Part shown: piece after piece, positions 11,825 through 17,404 of the stretch
Numbering within the stretch: the stretch's first letter is position 1
How the letters are laid out: every line of letters begins with the position of its first letter
Source of the DNA: Escherichia coli
Lineage (GTDB): Bacteria > Pseudomonadota > Gammaproteobacteria > Enterobacterales > Enterobacteriaceae
DNA length: 17,427 nucleotides
Assembly (NCBI RefSeq): GCF_003334305.1
Contig: NZ_QOWS01000040.1
Reading direction: 5' to 3' (one strand)
Position numbers and translations under genes: made by a program
Notes under the pieces: model-generated
What the model was told of the DNA's origin: nothing
Databases searched by the model: none
What the model saw: only the letters and a program-made list of their open reading frames with translations

Positions 11825-13294
11825 ATGCATATCGATTCGACTGAAAAAAATAATAAACAAAAGTTGGGCTTGCTTGCGCTAACATCCATTGTCGTGAGCT
11901 CGATGATCGGCAGCGGCGTTGACGGACTCCCCCAGAATATGGCGGAGAATTCTGCCGTGGGCCCGGTGGCGATAGCATGGATAGTCTGTGGTATCGGCAT
12001 GTTTTTCATCTCCAGAACTTTTATCGTGCTGTCAAACATTAGACCTGATCTCCAGTCAGGAGTTTATATGTATGCCCGGGAAGGGTTCGGCCGATTTACG
12101 GCATTTAACGTCGCCTGGGGCTACTGGCTGATGACTATATTCAGCAACGTCGCCTTTGCCATTATGGTGATGGATACGCTGAATTATTTCTTACCAGGTG
12201 ATTTCAAGGGAGGGAACAATATTCCTTCCGTTATCGGTGCCTCTTTGCTGATATGGGGATTCAACTTTTTAGTCCTCTCCGGTACCCGCATTGCCGGGTC
12301 GATTAACATCGTCGGCACGCTGGCCAAACTGATCCCGCTGGTGGCCTTTATTATTATTCTCATGCTGTTTATGAAGTACACCACGTTCGCAGATAACGTC
12401 TGGGGGCACAGCGCGAGTAAGGCCAGTCAGGACCTAGGCTCTATTTTCTCACAGGTAACTTCACCGCTTAGCGTGGCACTCTGGAGCTTCATCGGCGTTG
12501 AGGGGGCTGTCGCTCTTTCCGGTCGGGCCAAAAATAAACGCGACGTGGGTAAAGCCACATTAATTGGCTTCGTTGTATCACTGATTATCTGTCTGCTGGT
12601 CTCCATCCTACCGTTTGGCGTGCTGACTCAACATGAGCTCAGCGCAATTCCAACCCCATCCACCGCCGGTATTCTGAAGATTGTTGTCGGTGAATGGGGG
12701 AAGATTATGATTATCTTGGGGGTGCTGATTTCGGTGCTTACCAGCTGGCTGGCGTGGACCATCATCTGCGCCGAACTGCCTATGGTGGCCGCGCAGAACG
12801 GCACATTCCCGAAACCGTTCAGCAAAAAAAATGTGAAGGGTTCGGCCTCGGTTTCGCTTTATATAAGCAGTGCGTTTATGCAAATCGTCGTACTTCTGGT
12901 CTACTTTTCTAACGATGCCTGGCTTGCAATGCTGGCTATCTCTACCCTGACCGTTTTACCTGCGTATTTAATGACCACGGCATACCTGTTTAAACTATGT
13001 ATTAGCGGCGAGTATGCCAGCTATACCACGAATCACAGCCGCAGCGCCGCGCTGGTCAGCAGTATTATCGGCTTTGTATTCTGCCTGTTTATGTTCTACG
13101 CCAGTGAAATCAAATATCTGGCGATGGTTCCGGTGCTGCTTACGCTGGGCGTGCCCCTGTTTATCTGGGCAAGAAAAAAAGACGATCGCGCAGATAAAAT
13201 ATTTACGCTACGCGAACTGGCATTTTTTATTTTACTGCTGGTCCTCGACATCATTGTTTTTATTCTACTGCATTATAAAACGATACATTTTTAG
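11825..13294 (+). CDS. APC-superfamily antiporter, ArcD/YdgI-type (paralogue 1)
   Basis: 489-aa polytopic membrane protein. Motifs shared with E. coli YdgI/ArcD: KLGLLALTSIVVSSMIGSG…LPQNMA, IRPDL…YAREGFG, NVAWGYWLM, LWSFIGVEGAV.LSGRAKNKRDVGKATL. The TM1 motif is GSGVDGLPQN instead of the usual G.GVFSLPQN. A 195-bp AT-rich upstream region separates it from the IS1 end; the RBS is weak (AAGAG). Confidence 0.85.
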   Translation: MHIDSTEKNNKQKLGLLALTSIVVSSMIGSGVDGLPQNMAENSAVGPVAIAWIVCGIGMFFISRTFIVLSNIRPDLQSGVYMYAREGFGRFTAFNVAWGYWLMTIFSNVAFAIMVMDTLNYFLPGDFKGGNNIPSVIGASLLIWGFNFLVLSGTRIAGSINIVGTLAKLIPLVAFIIILMLFMKYTTFADNVWGHSASKASQDLGSIFSQVTSPLSVALWSFIGVEGAVALSGRAKNKRDVGKATLIGFVVSLIICLLVSILPFGVLTQHELSAIPTPSTAGILKIVVGEWGKIMIILGVLISVLTSWLAWTIICAELPMVAAQNGTFPKPFSKKNVKGSASVSLYISSAFMQIVVLLVYFSNDAWLAMLAISTLTVLPAYLMTTAYLFKLCISGEYASYTTNHSRSAALVSSIIGFVFCLFMFYASEIKYLAMVPVLLTLGVPLFIWARKKDDRADKIFTLRELAFFILLLVLDIIVFILLHYKTIHF

Positions 13295-13398
13295 TCCAGA
13301 TTAATTCACAGCAAGTTAAGGTGACGATAATGTCTGTTTCTTGGGCATGACATCCTCACAGTTAAATACTATCTGAACAGTAACAGTGGAGACACCTA

Positions 13399-15768
13399 AT
13401 GAAATTTAACCACAATCTTTTATTTATTTCCTCACAATATCTTGATGGCGACAACCCTTCGCAGCAGGTACTGGAAGAGCTTCAAACCGAACTCGCGGAA
13501 CGCGGTTTTAAAATTCATATCACGCACCAGATCTCTGATGGATTAAAAATCATCGAAAAAAGCCCCCAATACAGCGGGATTGGTTTTTACTGGGAGCCAG
13601 ACAATCCGACCTTTGCAGAAGAGCTACAGCACTTTATCAGCATATTCCGCAAAAGAAATGCCACGACGCCGCTGATAATTTTCTCAGAACAGAATATTAC
13701 CGATCGTATCCCACTCGACGTCTTAAAAGAGGTCAGCGAATATGTTTATCTGTTCTCTGAATCCGCAGCCTTCACTGCCAATCGACTGTACTCCTTAGTC
13801 CACCGCTATGCGGATAAGCTTCTTCCTCCCTACTTTAAAACCCTTAAGGACTTTACCGAGGACGGTGACTATTACTGGGACTGCCCGGGGCATATGGGGG
13901 GAATGGCCTATCTGAAACATCCTGTTGGCATTGAGTTCATTAACTTCTTTGGCGAAAACATGATGCGCGCTGATATTGGCGTGGCTACCGCGGAGATGGG
14001 GGATTATCTGATCCACGCCGGACCGCCTAAAAAATCGGAAGAAATTGCGGCCCGACTGTTTGGCTCTGATTGGACCTTCTACGGTGTTTCCGGCTCATCG
14101 GGGTCGAACCGTATTGTGGCCCAGGCTGCGGTTGGCGCAGATGAAATTGCCATTATTGACCGAAATTGCCACAAGTCACTTAATCATGGCCTGACCTTGT
14201 CTCAGGCAAGGCCGGTTTACCTGAAACCTACCCGCAACGCGTGGGGGCTGATTGGGCCTATCCCGACCGGACGCCTGAAGAAGGCCAGTATTGATGCGCT
14301 GGTGGCAAACAGCCGACTAGCATCTGGTGCGGTCAGCCAGTCCCCGTCCTACGCCGTGGTAACCAACTGCACCTATGATGGCTTCTGTTATAACGTGAAC
14401 GATGTAGTCAGACACCTGGGTGAAAGCGCACCGCGCATCCATTTTGATGAAGCATGGTATGCCTATGCGCGTTTCCATCCGCTATACCAGAGTCGCTATG
14501 CAATGGACGCGGAGGAAACGCCAAATCGTCCAACCCTATTCGCCGTACAGTCCACCCATAAAATGCTGCCCTCACTCTCCATGGCCTCAATGATTCATGT
14601 GAAGAAAAGCGATCGCGCGCCGCTTAATTTCGATGACTTTAACGATGCCTTTATGATGCACGGCACGACCTCACCCTACTACCCGATCATTGCATCAATT
14701 GATGTGGCAGTAAGCATGATGGAGGGTGAATCCGGTTATTCGCTTGTGCAGGAGTCAATTGAAGAAGCGATTGCCTTCCGTAAAGCCGTGGTCAGCGTCA
14801 AGCGCCAGCTCCAGGAGCAGGAAGGTGGTGACGCCTGGTTCTTCGATGTGCTTCAGCCAACCGAAGTGCAGGACAGCGATTCTGGGCAGCGATACAGTTT
14901 TGAAGAGGCACCCGTATCGCTGCTGAGCCACAGCGCCGACTGCTGGTCGCTGCGCTCCGGTGAGCGCTGGCACGGTTTTGCCGATGATGATCTGGTCGAA
15001 ACCAACAGTATGCTCGATCCAGTAAAAGTGACCCTGACTTGTCCAGGGATCGGCCCGAAGGGAGAATACCAGAAAAACGGTATTCCGGGATATTTGCTGA
15101 CCCGTTTTCTCGATGACCGTCGCATTGAAATTGCCCGTACTGGTGACTACACCGTGCTGATCCTGTTCTCCGTCGGCATCACCAAAGGCAAATGGGGAAC
15201 TCTGATTGAAAGCCTGCTGGCCTTTAAAAAGCATTACGACAATGACGATCTGGCCACAGATGCTATCCCGTCGCTGAAAGCGCATTCTCCACACTACGAC
15301 ACGCTAACCCTCAAGGAGCTATGTCAGATAATGCATGAAAAAATGGATGAGCTGGAGCTGATGTCGCATATCAACGACGCGGTAAACACCGATCCGGAAC
15401 CAGTTATGACCCCGGCAGAAGCCTATCAGAAAGTCGTACGCTACAAAACCGAGCATATCCGGCTGGATGATTTTAGCGGCAGAATTGCCGCCAGCATGCT
15501 CGTCCCATATCCCCCAGGCATTCCTGTACTGATGCCGGGCGAACGGATGCCGCAAGGTAACAAGGGCATTATTGGCTATCTGCGCGCCCTGCAGGAATTC
15601 GATAAGCAATTCCCAGGTTTTGAACATGAGATCCAGGGCGTTAACGTCGATGAAAACGGGGACTTCTGGGTCAGAGCGATTGTGGAAGAAGAACGCGATG
15701 GGCAGTCGCTACCCGGCCACATAACCTTTAAACGCCAGGTCTCTGGTATTAAAAAGGGCCGCCAGTAG
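13399..15768 (+). CDS. PLP-dependent Orn/Lys/Arg decarboxylase, fold-type I, AdiA-like (789 aa), substrate unknown
   Basis: Shares blocks with E. coli AdiA and CadA: GSSGSNR, DRNCHKSL, PTRNA, VVTNCTYDG, HFDEAWYAYARF, STHKM (putative PLP lysine, codon at 14560-14562), MMHGTTSPYYPI, DVAVSMMEG, WHGF, MLDPVKVTL, FSVGITKGKWGTL, VPYPPGIPVLMPGE, FPGFEHEIQG. N-terminal wing-like domain present. GGAG RBS 8 nt upstream. About 34 aa longer than AdiA, with a C-terminal extension. Confidence 0.9.
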   Translation: MKFNHNLLFISSQYLDGDNPSQQVLEELQTELAERGFKIHITHQISDGLKIIEKSPQYSGIGFYWEPDNPTFAEELQHFISIFRKRNATTPLIIFSEQNITDRIPLDVLKEVSEYVYLFSESAAFTANRLYSLVHRYADKLLPPYFKTLKDFTEDGDYYWDCPGHMGGMAYLKHPVGIEFINFFGENMMRADIGVATAEMGDYLIHAGPPKKSEEIAARLFGSDWTFYGVSGSSGSNRIVAQAAVGADEIAIIDRNCHKSLNHGLTLSQARPVYLKPTRNAWGLIGPIPTGRLKKASIDALVANSRLASGAVSQSPSYAVVTNCTYDGFCYNVNDVVRHLGESAPRIHFDEAWYAYARFHPLYQSRYAMDAEETPNRPTLFAVQSTHKMLPSLSMASMIHVKKSDRAPLNFDDFNDAFMMHGTTSPYYPIIASIDVAVSMMEGESGYSLVQESIEEAIAFRKAVVSVKRQLQEQEGGDAWFFDVLQPTEVQDSDSGQRYSFEEAPVSLLSHSADCWSLRSGERWHGFADDDLVETNSMLDPVKVTLTCPGIGPKGEYQKNGIPGYLLTRFLDDRRIEIARTGDYTVLILFSVGITKGKWGTLIESLLAFKKHYDNDDLATDAIPSLKAHSPHYDTLTLKELCQIMHEKMDELELMSHINDAVNTDPEPVMTPAEAYQKVVRYKTEHIRLDDFSGRIAASMLVPYPPGIPVLMPGERMPQGNKGIIGYLRALQEFDKQFPGFEHEIQGVNVDENGDFWVRAIVEEERDGQSLPGHITFKRQVSGIKKGRQ

Positions 15769-15786
15769 GCGGGGGAAAGAACAATA

Positions 15787-15812
15787 CCGTCGGATCGCCT
15801 GCAATCCGACGG
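15787..15812 (+). other. Perfect 9-bp hairpin in the decarboxylase-antiporter intergenic region (possible attenuator or transcript-processing/stability element)
   Basis: CCGTCGGAT-cgcctgca-ATCCGACGG, 18 bp after the decarboxylase stop and 30 bp before the second antiporter ATG. No T-run follows, so it is not a classical full terminator. Confidence 0.4.
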
Positions 15813-15842
15813 CAATATTATAGAATAGCTGAGGGAAACGTT

Positions 15843-17342
15843 ATGGCAGAGCAATCTTCAGATGTAAAAAATAGTGACAATAGCGCCGGAGGACATAAGC
15901 TGGGGCTTATATCCCTCATCGCTATTGTCGTTAGCTCCATGCTGGGAGGCGGCGTTTTCAGTCTGCCGCAAAACACGGCGGCCTCTTCTGCACTAGGGCC
16001 AGTAATCATTGCATGGATTATTGCCGGGATCGGTATTTATTTTATCGCAAACTCCTTTCGCGTACTATCAGATCTGCGCCCGGACCTTCAGGCTGGAGTG
16101 TATATGTATGCCCAGGAAGGTTTTGGTTCCTTTATTGGCTTTAACGTCGCCTGGGGCTACTGGCTGATGACCGCATTTGGCAACGTTGCCTTTGCGGTAA
16201 TTTTAATGGATGCTTTTAATCAGTTTATGCCGGGGGTTTTTACGGATGGTAATAATCTGAACTCCATTATCTGCGGCTCAGTGCTGATCTGGGGCTATAA
16301 TTTTCTTGTTCTGTCCGGGACGAAAGTGGCCGGATTTGTTAACACCTTGGGAACCATCGCCAAGCTCGTCCCTCTGATCCTATTCGTATTACTGCTGGGT
16401 GTGCTGATCGATTATTCGGACCTGTTTAAAAATTTTTGGGGAGAATCACCCGCGATCCTCAGTGGCAACGGAAATGACGCCGCACCAGTATCGCTGCTGT
16501 CTCAGATTCTGGCACCGATGACCGTAACGCTCTGGGCCTTTATTGGCGTCGAGGGAGCGGTTGTTCTATCCGGACGTGCCAAAAATAAACAGGACGTAGG
16601 GAAAGCCACACTGATCGGCTTTCTGCTGGCGCTAATTATTTATATGTTAATGTCCATTCTGCCGTTCGGTGTAATGCCTCAGGCAGAACTAGCGCAGGTC
16701 AGTAACCCCTCTACCGCAGGCGTGCTCGCCCACGTTGTCGGTCAGTGGGGCGACTGGCTGATGAGCGCGGGGCTGATTATTTCTGTTCTGGCCGGCTGGC
16801 TTGCCTGGACCATGCTATGCGCTGAAATACCGATGGTAGCAGGACAGAAAGGCGCTTTCCCGCGCGCGTTTGCCCGAACGAACAGTAAACAGGCGGCCAA
16901 TGTGTCACTGTGGGTTAGTAGCTTTGTGATGCAGGCGGCCATGTTACTTGTTTATTTTTCAAATAATGCTTGGACCACCATGTATAATATCAGTGCGCTG
17001 ATGGTTGTTCCGGCCTATATTACCACCACGCTGTATCTGACCAGTATTTGCAGAAACGGAAAATATGATCAGTATGCAAAAAAAGGCCGCAGGCTGGCTT
17101 TGTCCAGCGGTGTTTTAGGCTCGCTATTCTGTCTGTTTATTCTTTACGCCAGCCAGATTGAGTATGTTGCATTAATTCCTATCCTGTTGACCTGTGGTCT
17201 GCCGGTCTTTATCTGGTCAAGAAAAGAAAAAAATGATGGTCAGCCGATATTTACCAAAAAAGAGCTGATTTATCTGATTATGCTGTTGCTGTGCGATATT
17301 ATCGTCGTTGCCCTGTTTATTGGTGGATATTTAAAGGTATAA
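15843..17342 (+). CDS. APC-superfamily antiporter, ArcD/YdgI-type (paralogue 2)
   Basis: 499-aa polytopic membrane protein with the canonical TM1 motif SSMLGGGVFSLPQNTA and FIGVEGAVVLSGRAKNKQDVGKATL. Roughly 55-60% identical to paralogue 1 by eye. GAGGGA RBS upstream. Confidence 0.9.
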   Translation: MAEQSSDVKNSDNSAGGHKLGLISLIAIVVSSMLGGGVFSLPQNTAASSALGPVIIAWIIAGIGIYFIANSFRVLSDLRPDLQAGVYMYAQEGFGSFIGFNVAWGYWLMTAFGNVAFAVILMDAFNQFMPGVFTDGNNLNSIICGSVLIWGYNFLVLSGTKVAGFVNTLGTIAKLVPLILFVLLLGVLIDYSDLFKNFWGESPAILSGNGNDAAPVSLLSQILAPMTVTLWAFIGVEGAVVLSGRAKNKQDVGKATLIGFLLALIIYMLMSILPFGVMPQAELAQVSNPSTAGVLAHVVGQWGDWLMSAGLIISVLAGWLAWTMLCAEIPMVAGQKGAFPRAFARTNSKQAANVSLWVSSFVMQAAMLLVYFSNNAWTTMYNISALMVVPAYITTTLYLTSICRNGKYDQYAKKGRRLALSSGVLGSLFCLFILYASQIEYVALIPILLTCGLPVFIWSRKEKNDGQPIFTKKELIYLIMLLLCDIIVVALFIGGYLKV

Positions 17343-17372: not shown

Positions 17373-17404
17373 TGCCGCCTTTTAAACAAGAAGGGCGGCA
17401 ATCT
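17373..17404 (+). terminator. Possible terminator hairpin after the second antiporter gene
   Basis: TGCCGCC-(14-nt loop)-GGCGGCA inverted repeat about 30 bp after the stop. Weak T-tract (aatctt), so confidence is low. Confidence 0.25.

Follow-up and report, generated by a model that had tools for sequence, protein, structure and literature searches.

A candidate histidine/histamine decarboxylation-antiport operon of Escherichia coli with an AdiA-like decarboxylase between two paralogous antiporters

In the arginine-dependent acid resistance system AdiA-AdiY-AdiC the decarboxylase is encoded beside a single antiporter. The Escherichia coli locus described here shares enzyme fold, domain order and decarboxylase-antiporter adjacency with this system, but it holds two transporters (T1 upstream, T2 downstream) instead of one and has no adjacent regulator. 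The product of Morganella hdc is presumably a group II PLP histidine decarboxylase of roughly 378 aa and not close to the 789-aa wing-domain enzyme of our locus. In the Gram-negative cluster hdcT1-hdc-hdcT2-hisRS of Morganella the decarboxylase gene likewise lies between two putative antiporter genes (PMC12072131), a likeness of layout; the E. coli module is without hisRS. The transporter-enzyme-transporter layout had been regarded in a first-pass annotation as a departure from known systems. This holds in comparison to the single-antiporter AdiA system, whereas Morganella provides a precedent within the Enterobacterales. On plasmid pHDC-RI of Tetragenococcus halophilus, the cluster hdcC(hdcP)-hdcA-hdcB-hisS encodes a pyruvoyl enzyme, unrelated to the 789-aa decarboxylase, together with the antiporter HdcC. 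The latter belongs to the same ArcD-like branch as T1 and T2, and this branch thus includes histidine/histamine exchangers. The known clusters hdcC-hdcA-hdcB-hisS, hdcT1-hdc-hdcT2-hisRS and cadBA-lysU are all marked by tRNA-synthetase paralogues.

LdcA of Pseudomonas aeruginosa is also an AdiA-related wing-domain enzyme with an adjacent downstream antiporter. It differs from the E. coli enzyme by its separate clade and its CadB-like antiporter; its substrate departs from what the nearest relatives suggest, and its reported role lies in lysine catabolism and growth rather than in acid stress (PMC6257575). Together with a Burkholderia lysine decarboxylase within the Adc cluster, LdcA documents substrate shifts in the AdiA-related branch (PMC6257575). 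For Photobacterium, PMC8671102 credits an alternative histidine decarboxylase, hdc2, to Bjornsdottir-Butler 2020 (Int J Food Microbiol 334:108815). According to this paper, hdc2 and a histidine-histamine antiporter are both found in 11 strains of P. phosphoreum and one of P. carnosum that are without hdc (PMC8671102).

The features of the E. coli locus are compiled in Table 1; positions refer to the window, i.e. the whole stretch of 17,427 nucleotides that was analyzed.

Table 1. Features of the decarboxylase-antiporter locus and its borders in the window.
Feature	Position	Strand	Basis
IS1-family element, left boundary of the module, outside the operon	10914-11630	-	RefSeq frameshifted IS1-family transposase, A7 and CFT073
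Promoter-like site TATACA-16-TATAAT	11681-11708	+	10/12 matches, consensus match only; best + strand site of the region
T1, upstream antiporter, basic amino acid/polyamine antiporter family, 489 aa	11825-13294	+	ORF list
PLP-dependent wing-domain decarboxylase, AdiA-like, separate clade, 789 aa; proposed substrate histidine	13399-15768	+	ORF list and Pfam
T2, downstream antiporter, paralogue of T1, 499 aa	15843-17342	+	ORF list
Strong stem-loop, probably operon end	17373-17400	+	11-bp G+C-rich stem, 30 nt past the T2 stop codon

All three open reading frames are co-directional, with gaps of 104 bp between T1 and the decarboxylase and 74 bp between the decarboxylase and T2, in exact agreement with the sizes and distances given in the first-pass annotation. 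The same three coding sequences are found in the RefSeq annotation of CFT073 and strain A7. The block occurs in 495 of 5,426 complete E. coli genomes (~9%, roughly one in eleven), including the urinary pathogen CFT073, and among the 495 genomes all three reading frames are intact and at least 99% identical. It sits in at least two separate islands: CFT073 carries it in the selC island, A7 in a region with fec and malX. On the left, the terminal repeat of the IS1-family element is visible at about 11620-11630, and on the right a canonical IS1 inverted repeat begins 3 nt past the end of the window. The locus, with IS1-family sequences on both sides, is accessory, as had been supposed. A composite transposon was considered and rejected, as the two flanking IS1-family elements differ and have no long repeat in common.

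An AT-rich stretch of 195 bp, which holds the promoter-like site, separates the IS1-family end from the T1 start codon and is the only native sequence left upstream of T1. In E. coli an insertion sequence has taken the place of the region upstream. In a comparison of four genera the sequence upstream of T1 was not conserved in Klebsiella sp., Hafnia and Proteus, and no Rfam match to an RNA element was obtained anywhere in the window. The 85-nt tail after T2 folds with -28.1 kcal/mol (z = -3.7), a stability that none of 200 shuffled sequences reached. In both intergenic gaps the scan gave no comparable + strand terminator-like site, and folding there was no better than that of shuffles. T1, the decarboxylase gene and T2 presumably form one operon.

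The decarboxylase contains the wing, core and C-terminal domains expected for this family, namely OKR_DC_1_N (1.2e-15), OKR_DC_1 (1.1e-144) and OKR_DC_1_C (6.1e-46). Among solved structures, full-length matches were obtained to AdiA, LdcA, LdcC and LdcI, with AdiA as the best (E = 1e-190) and LdcA (6q6i) lower at 583 bits. No cut-off of a curated NCBIfam arginine, lysine or ornithine decarboxylase model is reached. The AdiA equivalog model NF011603 gives 739.9 bits (cut-off 1167), followed by LdcC with 620.6 (968), LdcI with 560 (1056), ornithine decarboxylase with 428.9 (794) and SpeF with 424.7 bits (1310). Against a histidine assignment it may be recorded that AdiA is still the best profile match. 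Sequence identities amount to 38.8% for AdiA, 36.1% for CadA, 31.6% for SpeF and 61.7% for a Photobacterium enzyme. The earlier description as AdiA-like is therefore apt for fold and best match, yet the protein is not AdiA. Whatever the substrate, the automated label 'arginine decarboxylase' lacks support and should not be propagated.

In an alignment of 18 sequences of the clade the motifs STHK388, FDEAW (D350, W353), NCHKS (H258), GSSGSN and HGTTSP are invariant. From the structures of AdiA and LdcI we take STHK388 to be the PLP-lysine motif and the others to bind the cofactor. The clade and AdiA each have a conserved but different residue at 62 positions, among them the loops next to the PGH and LLDH motifs. 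The literature examined on AdiA and AAT-fold decarboxylases names no substrate determinants. By analogy to its wing-domain relatives, the enzyme probably assembles into a decamer.

All trees, including bootstrap values, are of the neighbour-joining type only. The decarboxylase clade is recovered with 97% bootstrap, comprises members from Hafnia and Proteus to Bordetella, Acinetobacter and Victivallis, and is excluded from the AdiA group at 100%. Among the matches listed in a locus scan across genomes, most were distant relatives of 40-50% identity, and at least seven new loci fell inside the clade. The order T1-enzyme-T2 was found in six other genera, including Hafnia, Klebsiella sp., Proteus, Commensalibacter and two Bordetella species, and because of this recurrence the arrangement is not due to chance. 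Acinetobacter has the same set in rearranged order. The enzyme is followed by T2 without T1 in Victivallis, Lentisphaeria, an alphaproteobacterial MAG, Amphritea and a Salmonella plasmid, and in Shewanella by an antiporter of 489 aa whose family scores show the same profile. Outside the Photobacterium lineage, an antiporter of the T1/T2 type accompanied the enzyme in all 17 loci examined, in one case as a weaker relative of about 43% identity. Adjacency, co-direction and order of the decarboxylase and antiporter genes are hence conserved across taxa.

An AraC-type regulator upstream, which recalls AdiY, was found in Hafnia and Proteus only among the loci examined and is absent in E. coli; it was rejected as a general component for this reason. 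The same applies to three genes located after T2: a FUSC-family gene (Salmonella plasmid) and an unannotated 352-aa gene (Bordetella avium), each seen in a single locus, and a 341-aa gene of Acinetobacter that recurs only in Bordetella genomosp. 12. In P. penneri the copy of the enzyme gene carries an apparent frameshift. None of the clade loci examined showed a lysine or ornithine context (lysU, cadC, speFL or a potE-type antiporter). In a sister clade of Acidobacteria and Dyella, the antiporter partners are 61-63% identical to AdiC; this pairing of related enzymes with AdiC-like antiporters is an observation against histidine.

T1 and T2 share 55% identity. Both pass the model of the basic amino acid/polyamine antiporter subfamily (TIGR00905; 488.3 and 493 bits, cut-off 409.05), and no narrower model was passed. 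On the ArcD equivalog TIGR03810 they reach 442.2 and 449.8 bits (cut-off 591; E. coli YdgI 507.7), and on the HdcC/HdcP-type model NF040512 437.9 and 415.5 bits (cut-off 725), where T. halophilus HdcC as a true member scores 883 bits. They are hence members of neither family. The slightly higher values on the ArcD than on the HdcC-type model are a point against histidine. The AdiC model (cut-off 574) gives 146 and 155 bits; neither transporter is an AdiC-type partner. Identities are 37-38% to YdgI (T1 37%), 35-36% to T. halophilus HdcC (T1 35%) and 22-31% to AdiC, CadB and PotE, with 29-31% to AdiC alone (T1 29%), which lies on the other main branch of the family. In the tree T1 and T2 group in a clade of their own next to YdgI and HdcC. 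Tree, scores and identities thus place the transporters outside the AdiC/CadB/PotE clade, as the first-pass annotation had it. Its term 'ArcD-type' is correct with regard to paralogy and to the ArcD/YdgI side of the family, but too specific in view of the ArcD equivalog score. Nor can this type of antiporter be tied to the arginine deiminase pathway, as had been proposed, since T1 and T2 are as close to the Gram-positive histidine/histamine antiporter HdcC as to YdgI.

The orthologous clade of T1 covers seven other loci from seven genera. Orthologues of T2 are 76-86% identical in Proteobacteria and 58-61% in single-transporter loci, and T2 is the partner retained with the enzyme across the clade. 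The residues aligned to AdiC Y93, N101, W202, E208, W293, Y365 and Y74 are all kept in T1 and T2; we take the first six to be core residues and Y74 to be the proposed pH sensor. AdiC-aligned sites also include residues of T1 and T2 that differ from both YdgI and AdiC. At the substrate-binding positions of AdiC there is a single difference between T1 and T2, and the two therefore probably carry the same substrate/product pair. Separate roles of the two transporters are presumed. Among the basic amino acid/polyamine antiporters the T1/T2 clade forms a new specificity group, and it lends itself well to transport studies.

Histidine is the only substrate-specific context found anywhere in the decarboxylase clade. 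It comes from the Photobacterium lineage, represented by two loci whose enzymes are 86% identical to each other and 62% to the E. coli enzyme. An identity of 62% is, as a point against histidine, no guarantee of the same substrate. The lineage is nested in the 97% clade; in 61% of replicates its sister group is the core that contains E. coli, in 28% it is Shewanella. Of the 62 positions by which the clade is told from AdiA, the Photobacterium enzyme keeps 55, the loops GDYYWDCPGHMGG and GDYLIH among them. As in E. coli, the enzyme gene adjoins a co-directional antiporter gene of the basic amino acid/polyamine family. In Photobacterium this is one AdiC-like, TIGR04298-type antiporter (about 452 aa), accompanied by a HisRS paralogue, whereas in E. 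coli the two antiporters (489 and 499 aa) are ArcD/HdcC-like and hisRS is missing. The Photobacterium antiporters score 738 and 742 bits on TIGR04298, the histidine-histamine antiporter model (cut-off 750), and are thus near the threshold; AdiC is the next-best model with about 458-460 bits. A TIGR04298-like partner (742.6 bits) was also found for a basal relative from Budvicia. A swap of the transporter on the Photobacterium branch could have brought a change of substrate, which again is a point against histidine. The HisRS paralogue is 51% identical to E. coli HisS and located outside the housekeeping context. Both the TIGR04298-type antiporter and hisRS are missing from the window and from all T1/T2-type loci examined, and a tblastn search of the collected loci with Photobacterium HisRS gave matches only in L005 and the Tetragenococcus plasmid.

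The Photobacterium protein cluster spans phosphoreum, kishitanii, toruni and one carnosum sequence. The clade enzyme from this genus is probably hdc2, as judged by gene context and species distribution rather than by an accession number, and the gene cluster would correspondingly be that of hdc2. In a literature search we found no paper on the T1-decarboxylase-T2 module in E. coli, let alone one that assigns a substrate to this exact arrangement. The designation as undescribed thus stands for the E. coli module, but the enzyme clade is probably not wholly uncharacterized owing to hdc2. The earlier pointer to a different substrate/product pair gains a candidate as well: the Photobacterium members in histidine-type clusters point to histidine as the different substrate.

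On this basis, the nearest informative relatives suggest histidine/histamine rather than arginine. This is the most likely substrate/product pair, and the enzyme would then be a histidine decarboxylase of the hdc2 type and not a second AdiA. We consider the chances about even that the locus is a proton-consuming decarboxylation/antiport operon, probably converting histidine to histamine. In this cycle, which the locus probably runs, an antiporter would bring the basic amino acid into the cell, where the PLP enzyme would strip the alpha-carboxyl group and thereby use up a cytoplasmic proton. The amine would then exit in exchange for fresh substrate, and the outcome would be acid protection and membrane potential. 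We infer the antiport cycle, the substrate and any acid induction.

A second arginine-to-agmatine system, in which a divergent biodegradative arginine decarboxylase would work with T1 and T2 as arginine/agmatine exchangers, is an unlikely competitor. In its favour, AdiA is the best family and structure match, the arginine-ornithine antiporter model gives the transporters 442 and 450 bits, the sister-clade antiporters resemble AdiC, and some sources name the protein arginine decarboxylase. Against it, 739.9 bits lies far under the equivalog cut-off, and the identity to AdiA hardly exceeds that to CadA. Moreover, the clade departs from AdiA at the 62 positions conserved in each, loops included, T1 and T2 are unlike YdgI and AdiC at the AdiC-aligned sites, and E. 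coli already possesses adiA-adiY-adiC. In the nested Photobacterium lineage the context is one of HisRS and a histidine-type antiporter and not of arginine. Somewhat less likely still is the conversion of another basic amino acid to its amine, be it lysine, ornithine or the rarer 2,4-diaminobutyrate or citrulline, in parallel to LdcA. Substrate shifts are known in the AdiA-related branch (PMC6257575), the LdcC and LdcI models are matched at 620 and 560 bits, and the pattern M96, T97, F104 of T1 and T2 at AdiC-aligned sites is unlike that of every reference transporter examined. The clade loci examined, however, are devoid of lysU, cadC, speFL and potE-type antiporters, and their sole substrate-specific context is histidine.

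It is improbable that the genes are a decaying or silent passenger in E. coli, severed from their regulator by insertion sequences and of no expression or benefit. Such a fate would fit the IS sequences on both sides with about 195 bp of native upstream sequence left, the missing AraC-type regulator of Hafnia and Proteus, and the apparent frameshift in P. penneri. Three intact, nearly invariant reading frames in 495 genomes, the occurrence of the same block in at least two different islands, and the presence of a promoter-like site and a terminal hairpin argue against decay. In addition, a Tn5 insertion in c4502 ('putative antiporter') of CFT073 led to a copper phenotype, c4502 being only a candidate for this locus.

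Scombroid poisoning is linked to histamine formed by gut and food bacteria, and parts of the review literature connect such histamine also with visceral pain and inflammatory disease. A survey of histamine producers in the gut rests on the two known types of histidine decarboxylase, pyruvoyl and PLP-dependent (PMC8465708). With slightly less than even confidence, we propose a third, widely distributed bacterial class of wing-domain, AAT-fold, AdiA-like histidine decarboxylases with a dedicated, previously unrecognized pair of histidine/histamine antiporters. If histidine is the substrate, roughly one in eleven sequenced E. coli, including CFT073, would be cryptic histamine producers, as would Hafnia, Proteus, Providencia, Acinetobacter, Bordetella avium and insect-gut symbionts, and none of these would be caught by surveys that rely on the two known types. 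E. coli would then also have a further amino-acid-dependent acid-resistance system, with mobile islands and at least one conjugative plasmid as its carriers.

The three open reading frames described in the first-pass annotation, together with the gaps of 104 bp between the upstream antiporter (T1) and the decarboxylase and of 74 bp between the decarboxylase and the paralogous downstream antiporter (T2), were reproduced exactly by the ORF list, and its account of the anatomy of the module stands. Over the 5.8-kb block, identity reaches 100% with strain A7 and 99.9% with CFT073. In total, 495 out of 5,426 complete genomes carry the complete block with an identity of at least 99%. The RefSeq names in A7 and CFT073 are 'basic amino acid/polyamine antiporter' for T1 and T2, and 'Orn/Lys/Arg decarboxylase N-terminal domain-containing protein' for the enzyme; the CFT073 locus tags of the three genes are C_RS21255, C_RS21250 and C_RS21245. 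Literature searches on the E. coli genes of the module gave no result. We thus regard this as a real and conserved module, as yet uncharacterised in E. coli, and very likely as a decarboxylation/antiport system.

Coordinates of the module, its surroundings and features of compared loci
Feature	Sequence	Position	Strand	Remark
Ferric citrate uptake operon fecIRABCDE	Window	235-7780		complete
fecI ORF	Window	235-756		intact, 173 aa
IS3-family and IS1-family remnants	Window	7800-11630		patchwork, with truncated alcohol dehydrogenase gene
End of IS1-family element	Window	~11630		
Promoter-like site 5' of T1	Window	11681-11708	+	10/12 consensus matches; single such site
T1 antiporter	Window	11825-13294	+	489 aa; ORF list
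Decarboxylase	Window	13399-15768	+	789 aa; ORF list
Inverted repeat	Window	15785-15814		perfect over 9 bp, extendable to 13 bp
T2 antiporter	Window	15843-17342	+	499 aa; ORF list
Strong hairpin 3' of T2	Window	17373-17400	+	z = -3.7
Qat system and SLATT-domain gene pair	L001 (CFT073)	4499-9058		selC island
549-589-aa ORF	L005 (Photobacterium lineage)	10730-12379	-	
549-589-aa ORF	L097 (Photobacterium lineage)	5925-7694		
Two large decarboxylases	L007 (Acidobacteriota)	7001-13753		
Two large decarboxylases	L032 (Dyella)	7001-14374		
Decarboxylase	L037 (Proteus penneri ATCC 33519)	7001-9369		two overlapping pieces

The promoter-like site and the hairpin frame the genes, and T1, the enzyme and T2 are presumably co-transcribed. 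On the plus strand, the scan detected nothing terminator-like in the two intergenic gaps, and shuffled versions of each gap fold just as well as the gap itself. No Rfam family was found in the window, nor was a conserved leader. The inverted repeat in the gap between the enzyme and T2 is called terminator-like on the minus strand only, where no gene ends; the fold of this gap as a whole is not significant (z = -1.4).

All three Pfam Orn/Lys/Arg decarboxylase domains are present in the enzyme, and among solved structures it matches the AdiA decamers best (E = 1e-190), ahead of LdcA, LdcC and LdcI. Identity amounts to 38.8% with E. coli AdiA, 36.1% with CadA and 31.6% with SpeF. The score is nevertheless below the cut-off of every curated NCBIfam decarboxylase model, with 739.9 bits for AdiA (cut-off 1167), 620.6 for LdcC (968), 560 for LdcI (1056) and 424.7 for SpeF (1310). 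Since the PLP-lysine motif STHK388 and the remaining cofactor motifs are invariant across 18 relatives, the enzyme looks active.

The only model whose cut-off the two transporters exceed is the general one for basic amino acid/polyamine antiporters (488 bits for T1 and 493 for T2, cut-off 409). They fail the ArcD model (442/450 bits, cut-off 591), which makes the tie to the arginine deiminase pathway drawn in the first-pass annotation less apt, and likewise the HdcC-type histidine-histamine model (438/415 bits, cut-off 725) and those of AdiC, CadB and PotE. T1 and T2 share 55% identity with each other, compared to 37-38% with YdgI, 35-36% with the Tetragenococcus histidine/histamine antiporter HdcC, 29-31% with AdiC and 22-26% with CadB and PotE. 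In the neighbour-joining tree they form two separate orthologous groups within one joint clade, located beside YdgI and HdcC and far from AdiC, PotE and CadB. At sixteen positions aligned to substrate-binding or pH-sensing residues of AdiC, T1 and T2 differ at position 26 alone (Ser in T1, Gly in T2), and it is therefore probable that their substrate pair is the same. Both retain the conserved core residues as well as Tyr74. The pocket positions M96, T97 and F104 are unlike those of both YdgI and HdcC, so that the substrate pair cannot be read from the reference transporters. T1 may correspond to c4502 in the CFT073 gene numbering. A Tn5 insertion in CFT073 c4502, described as a 'putative antiporter', increased copper resistance.

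A protein search revealed a family of ~790-aa enzyme relatives with 52-87% identity in Hafnia, Proteus, Providencia, Salmonella diarizonae, an Enterobacter plasmid, Bordetella avium, Orbus, Orrella, Alcaligenes, Acinetobacter, Shewanella, Photobacterium, Victivallaceae and others. The T1-enzyme-T2 order is found again in B. avium, Hafnia, Commensalibacter, Klebsiella sp., Bordetella genomosp. 12 and Proteus penneri; in Acinetobacter all three genes are present but rearranged. A single T1/T2-type antiporter accompanies the enzyme in Victivallis, Lentisphaeria, an alphaproteobacterial MAG, Amphritea and two metagenomic contigs, as well as in a Shewanella locus, there judged from family scores. 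Of the two antiporters, T2 is the one retained alongside the enzyme across loci, and its conservation exceeds that of the enzyme. On a conjugative IncFIB plasmid of Salmonella Macclesfield, the enzyme and T2 (74% and 79% identity to E. coli) occur without T1; a FUSC-family membrane protein gene follows T2 there and in no other locus. An AraC-type regulator 5' of the module occurs in Hafnia and Proteus only. In Proteus penneri ATCC 33519 the decarboxylase match breaks near residue 402-405, so that either the gene is a frameshifted pseudogene or the assembly is in error at this point; its T1, T2 and AraC regulator genes are all intact.

Neighbour-joining trees of the enzyme (500 bootstrap replicates) united the E. 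coli, Photobacterium and deeper members paired with a T1/T2-type antiporter with 97% support. Together with Budvicia and relatives from Acidobacteria, Dyella and Methanosarcinales this clade was separated from the AdiA group with 100%. Photobacterium was placed as sister to the E. coli-containing core in 61% of the replicates, as sister to Shewanella in 28% and with all deeper members, the core excluded, in 0%. In the simplest history, the enzyme would have been paired ancestrally with a T1/T2-type antiporter, and the Photobacterium branch would later have exchanged its transporter and acquired hisRS. At 62 positions, residues are conserved within the clade and within AdiA but differ between the two; Photobacterium shares 55 of them and the sister clade 35. 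Among the clade-specific positions are the loops GDYYWDCPGHMGG and GDYLIH, where SLLDH stands in AdiA. The Acidobacteriota and Dyella loci each encode two decarboxylases, of which one belongs to the clade that is sister to that of the E. coli enzyme and the other to the AdiA group, with antiporters of 61-63% identity to AdiC between or beside them, resembling two-decarboxylase, one-antiporter systems (PMC8465708).

The two Photobacterium-lineage loci (L005 and L097) are unlike all others and bear on the substrate. Between them, the enzymes share 86% identity, compared to 62% with that of E. coli. The preceding antiporter is AdiC-like and reaches 738 and 742 bits on the TIGR04298 histidine-histamine model (cut-off 750), compared to ~458-460 bits on the AdiC model; the basal Budvicia enzyme is likewise paired with a TIGR04298-like antiporter (742.6 bits). 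After the enzyme follows a histidyl-tRNA synthetase paralogue with 51% identity to E. coli HisS and a diverged C-terminal domain, around which the ispG-hisS-yfgM context is absent. An additional tRNA synthetase gene is a mark of decarboxylation clusters already known, such as hdcC-hdcA-hdcB-hisS and cadBA with lysU. A further example, hdcT1-hdc-hdcT2-hisRS (PMC12072131), also provides a precedent for the two-transporter layout that the first-pass annotation had regarded as unprecedented. According to PMC8671102, hdc2, the alternative Photobacterium histidine decarboxylase (Bjornsdottir-Butler 2020), occurs in one strain of P. carnosum and 11 of P. phosphoreum; our Photobacterium protein cluster spans P. 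phosphoreum, P. toruni and P. kishitanii, with WP_107290077 as the protein of the last, and contains a single P. carnosum sequence. As gene context and species match, the Photobacterium enzyme is probably hdc2. Histidine is the best-supported candidate substrate of the E. coli module, to which we give an even chance, in accordance with the probable new substrate anticipated from the sequence. Arginine appears unlikely, and another basic amino acid slightly more so. Beside the hisRS paralogue lies a 549-589-aa ORF without a Pfam domain in either locus, the C-terminal half of which weakly matches HisRS in L005 (76.5 bits).

In CFT073 the block is located inside an island adjoining tRNA-Sec (selC), in A7 and the window next to fecIRABCDE, in a region also containing Ag43 and malX. 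An IS1-family element ends ~195 bp 5' of T1 in both CFT073 and A7, and a canonical IS1 starts directly past the window end. As these two elements differ, a classical composite transposon could be ruled out. Given the island setting, the flanking IS elements and the plasmid-borne relative, the module was correctly read as accessory. The fec operon shares this accessory region; its fecI is marked by RefSeq as frameshifted in A7 and is intact in the window. Upstream of the module, CFT073 has the same alcohol dehydrogenase fragment and IS1-family element, though the island is a different one. Within a few kb of the module, that island also carries a pair of SLATT-domain genes and a Qat anti-phage system (qatC, and qatD with a KAP NTPase).
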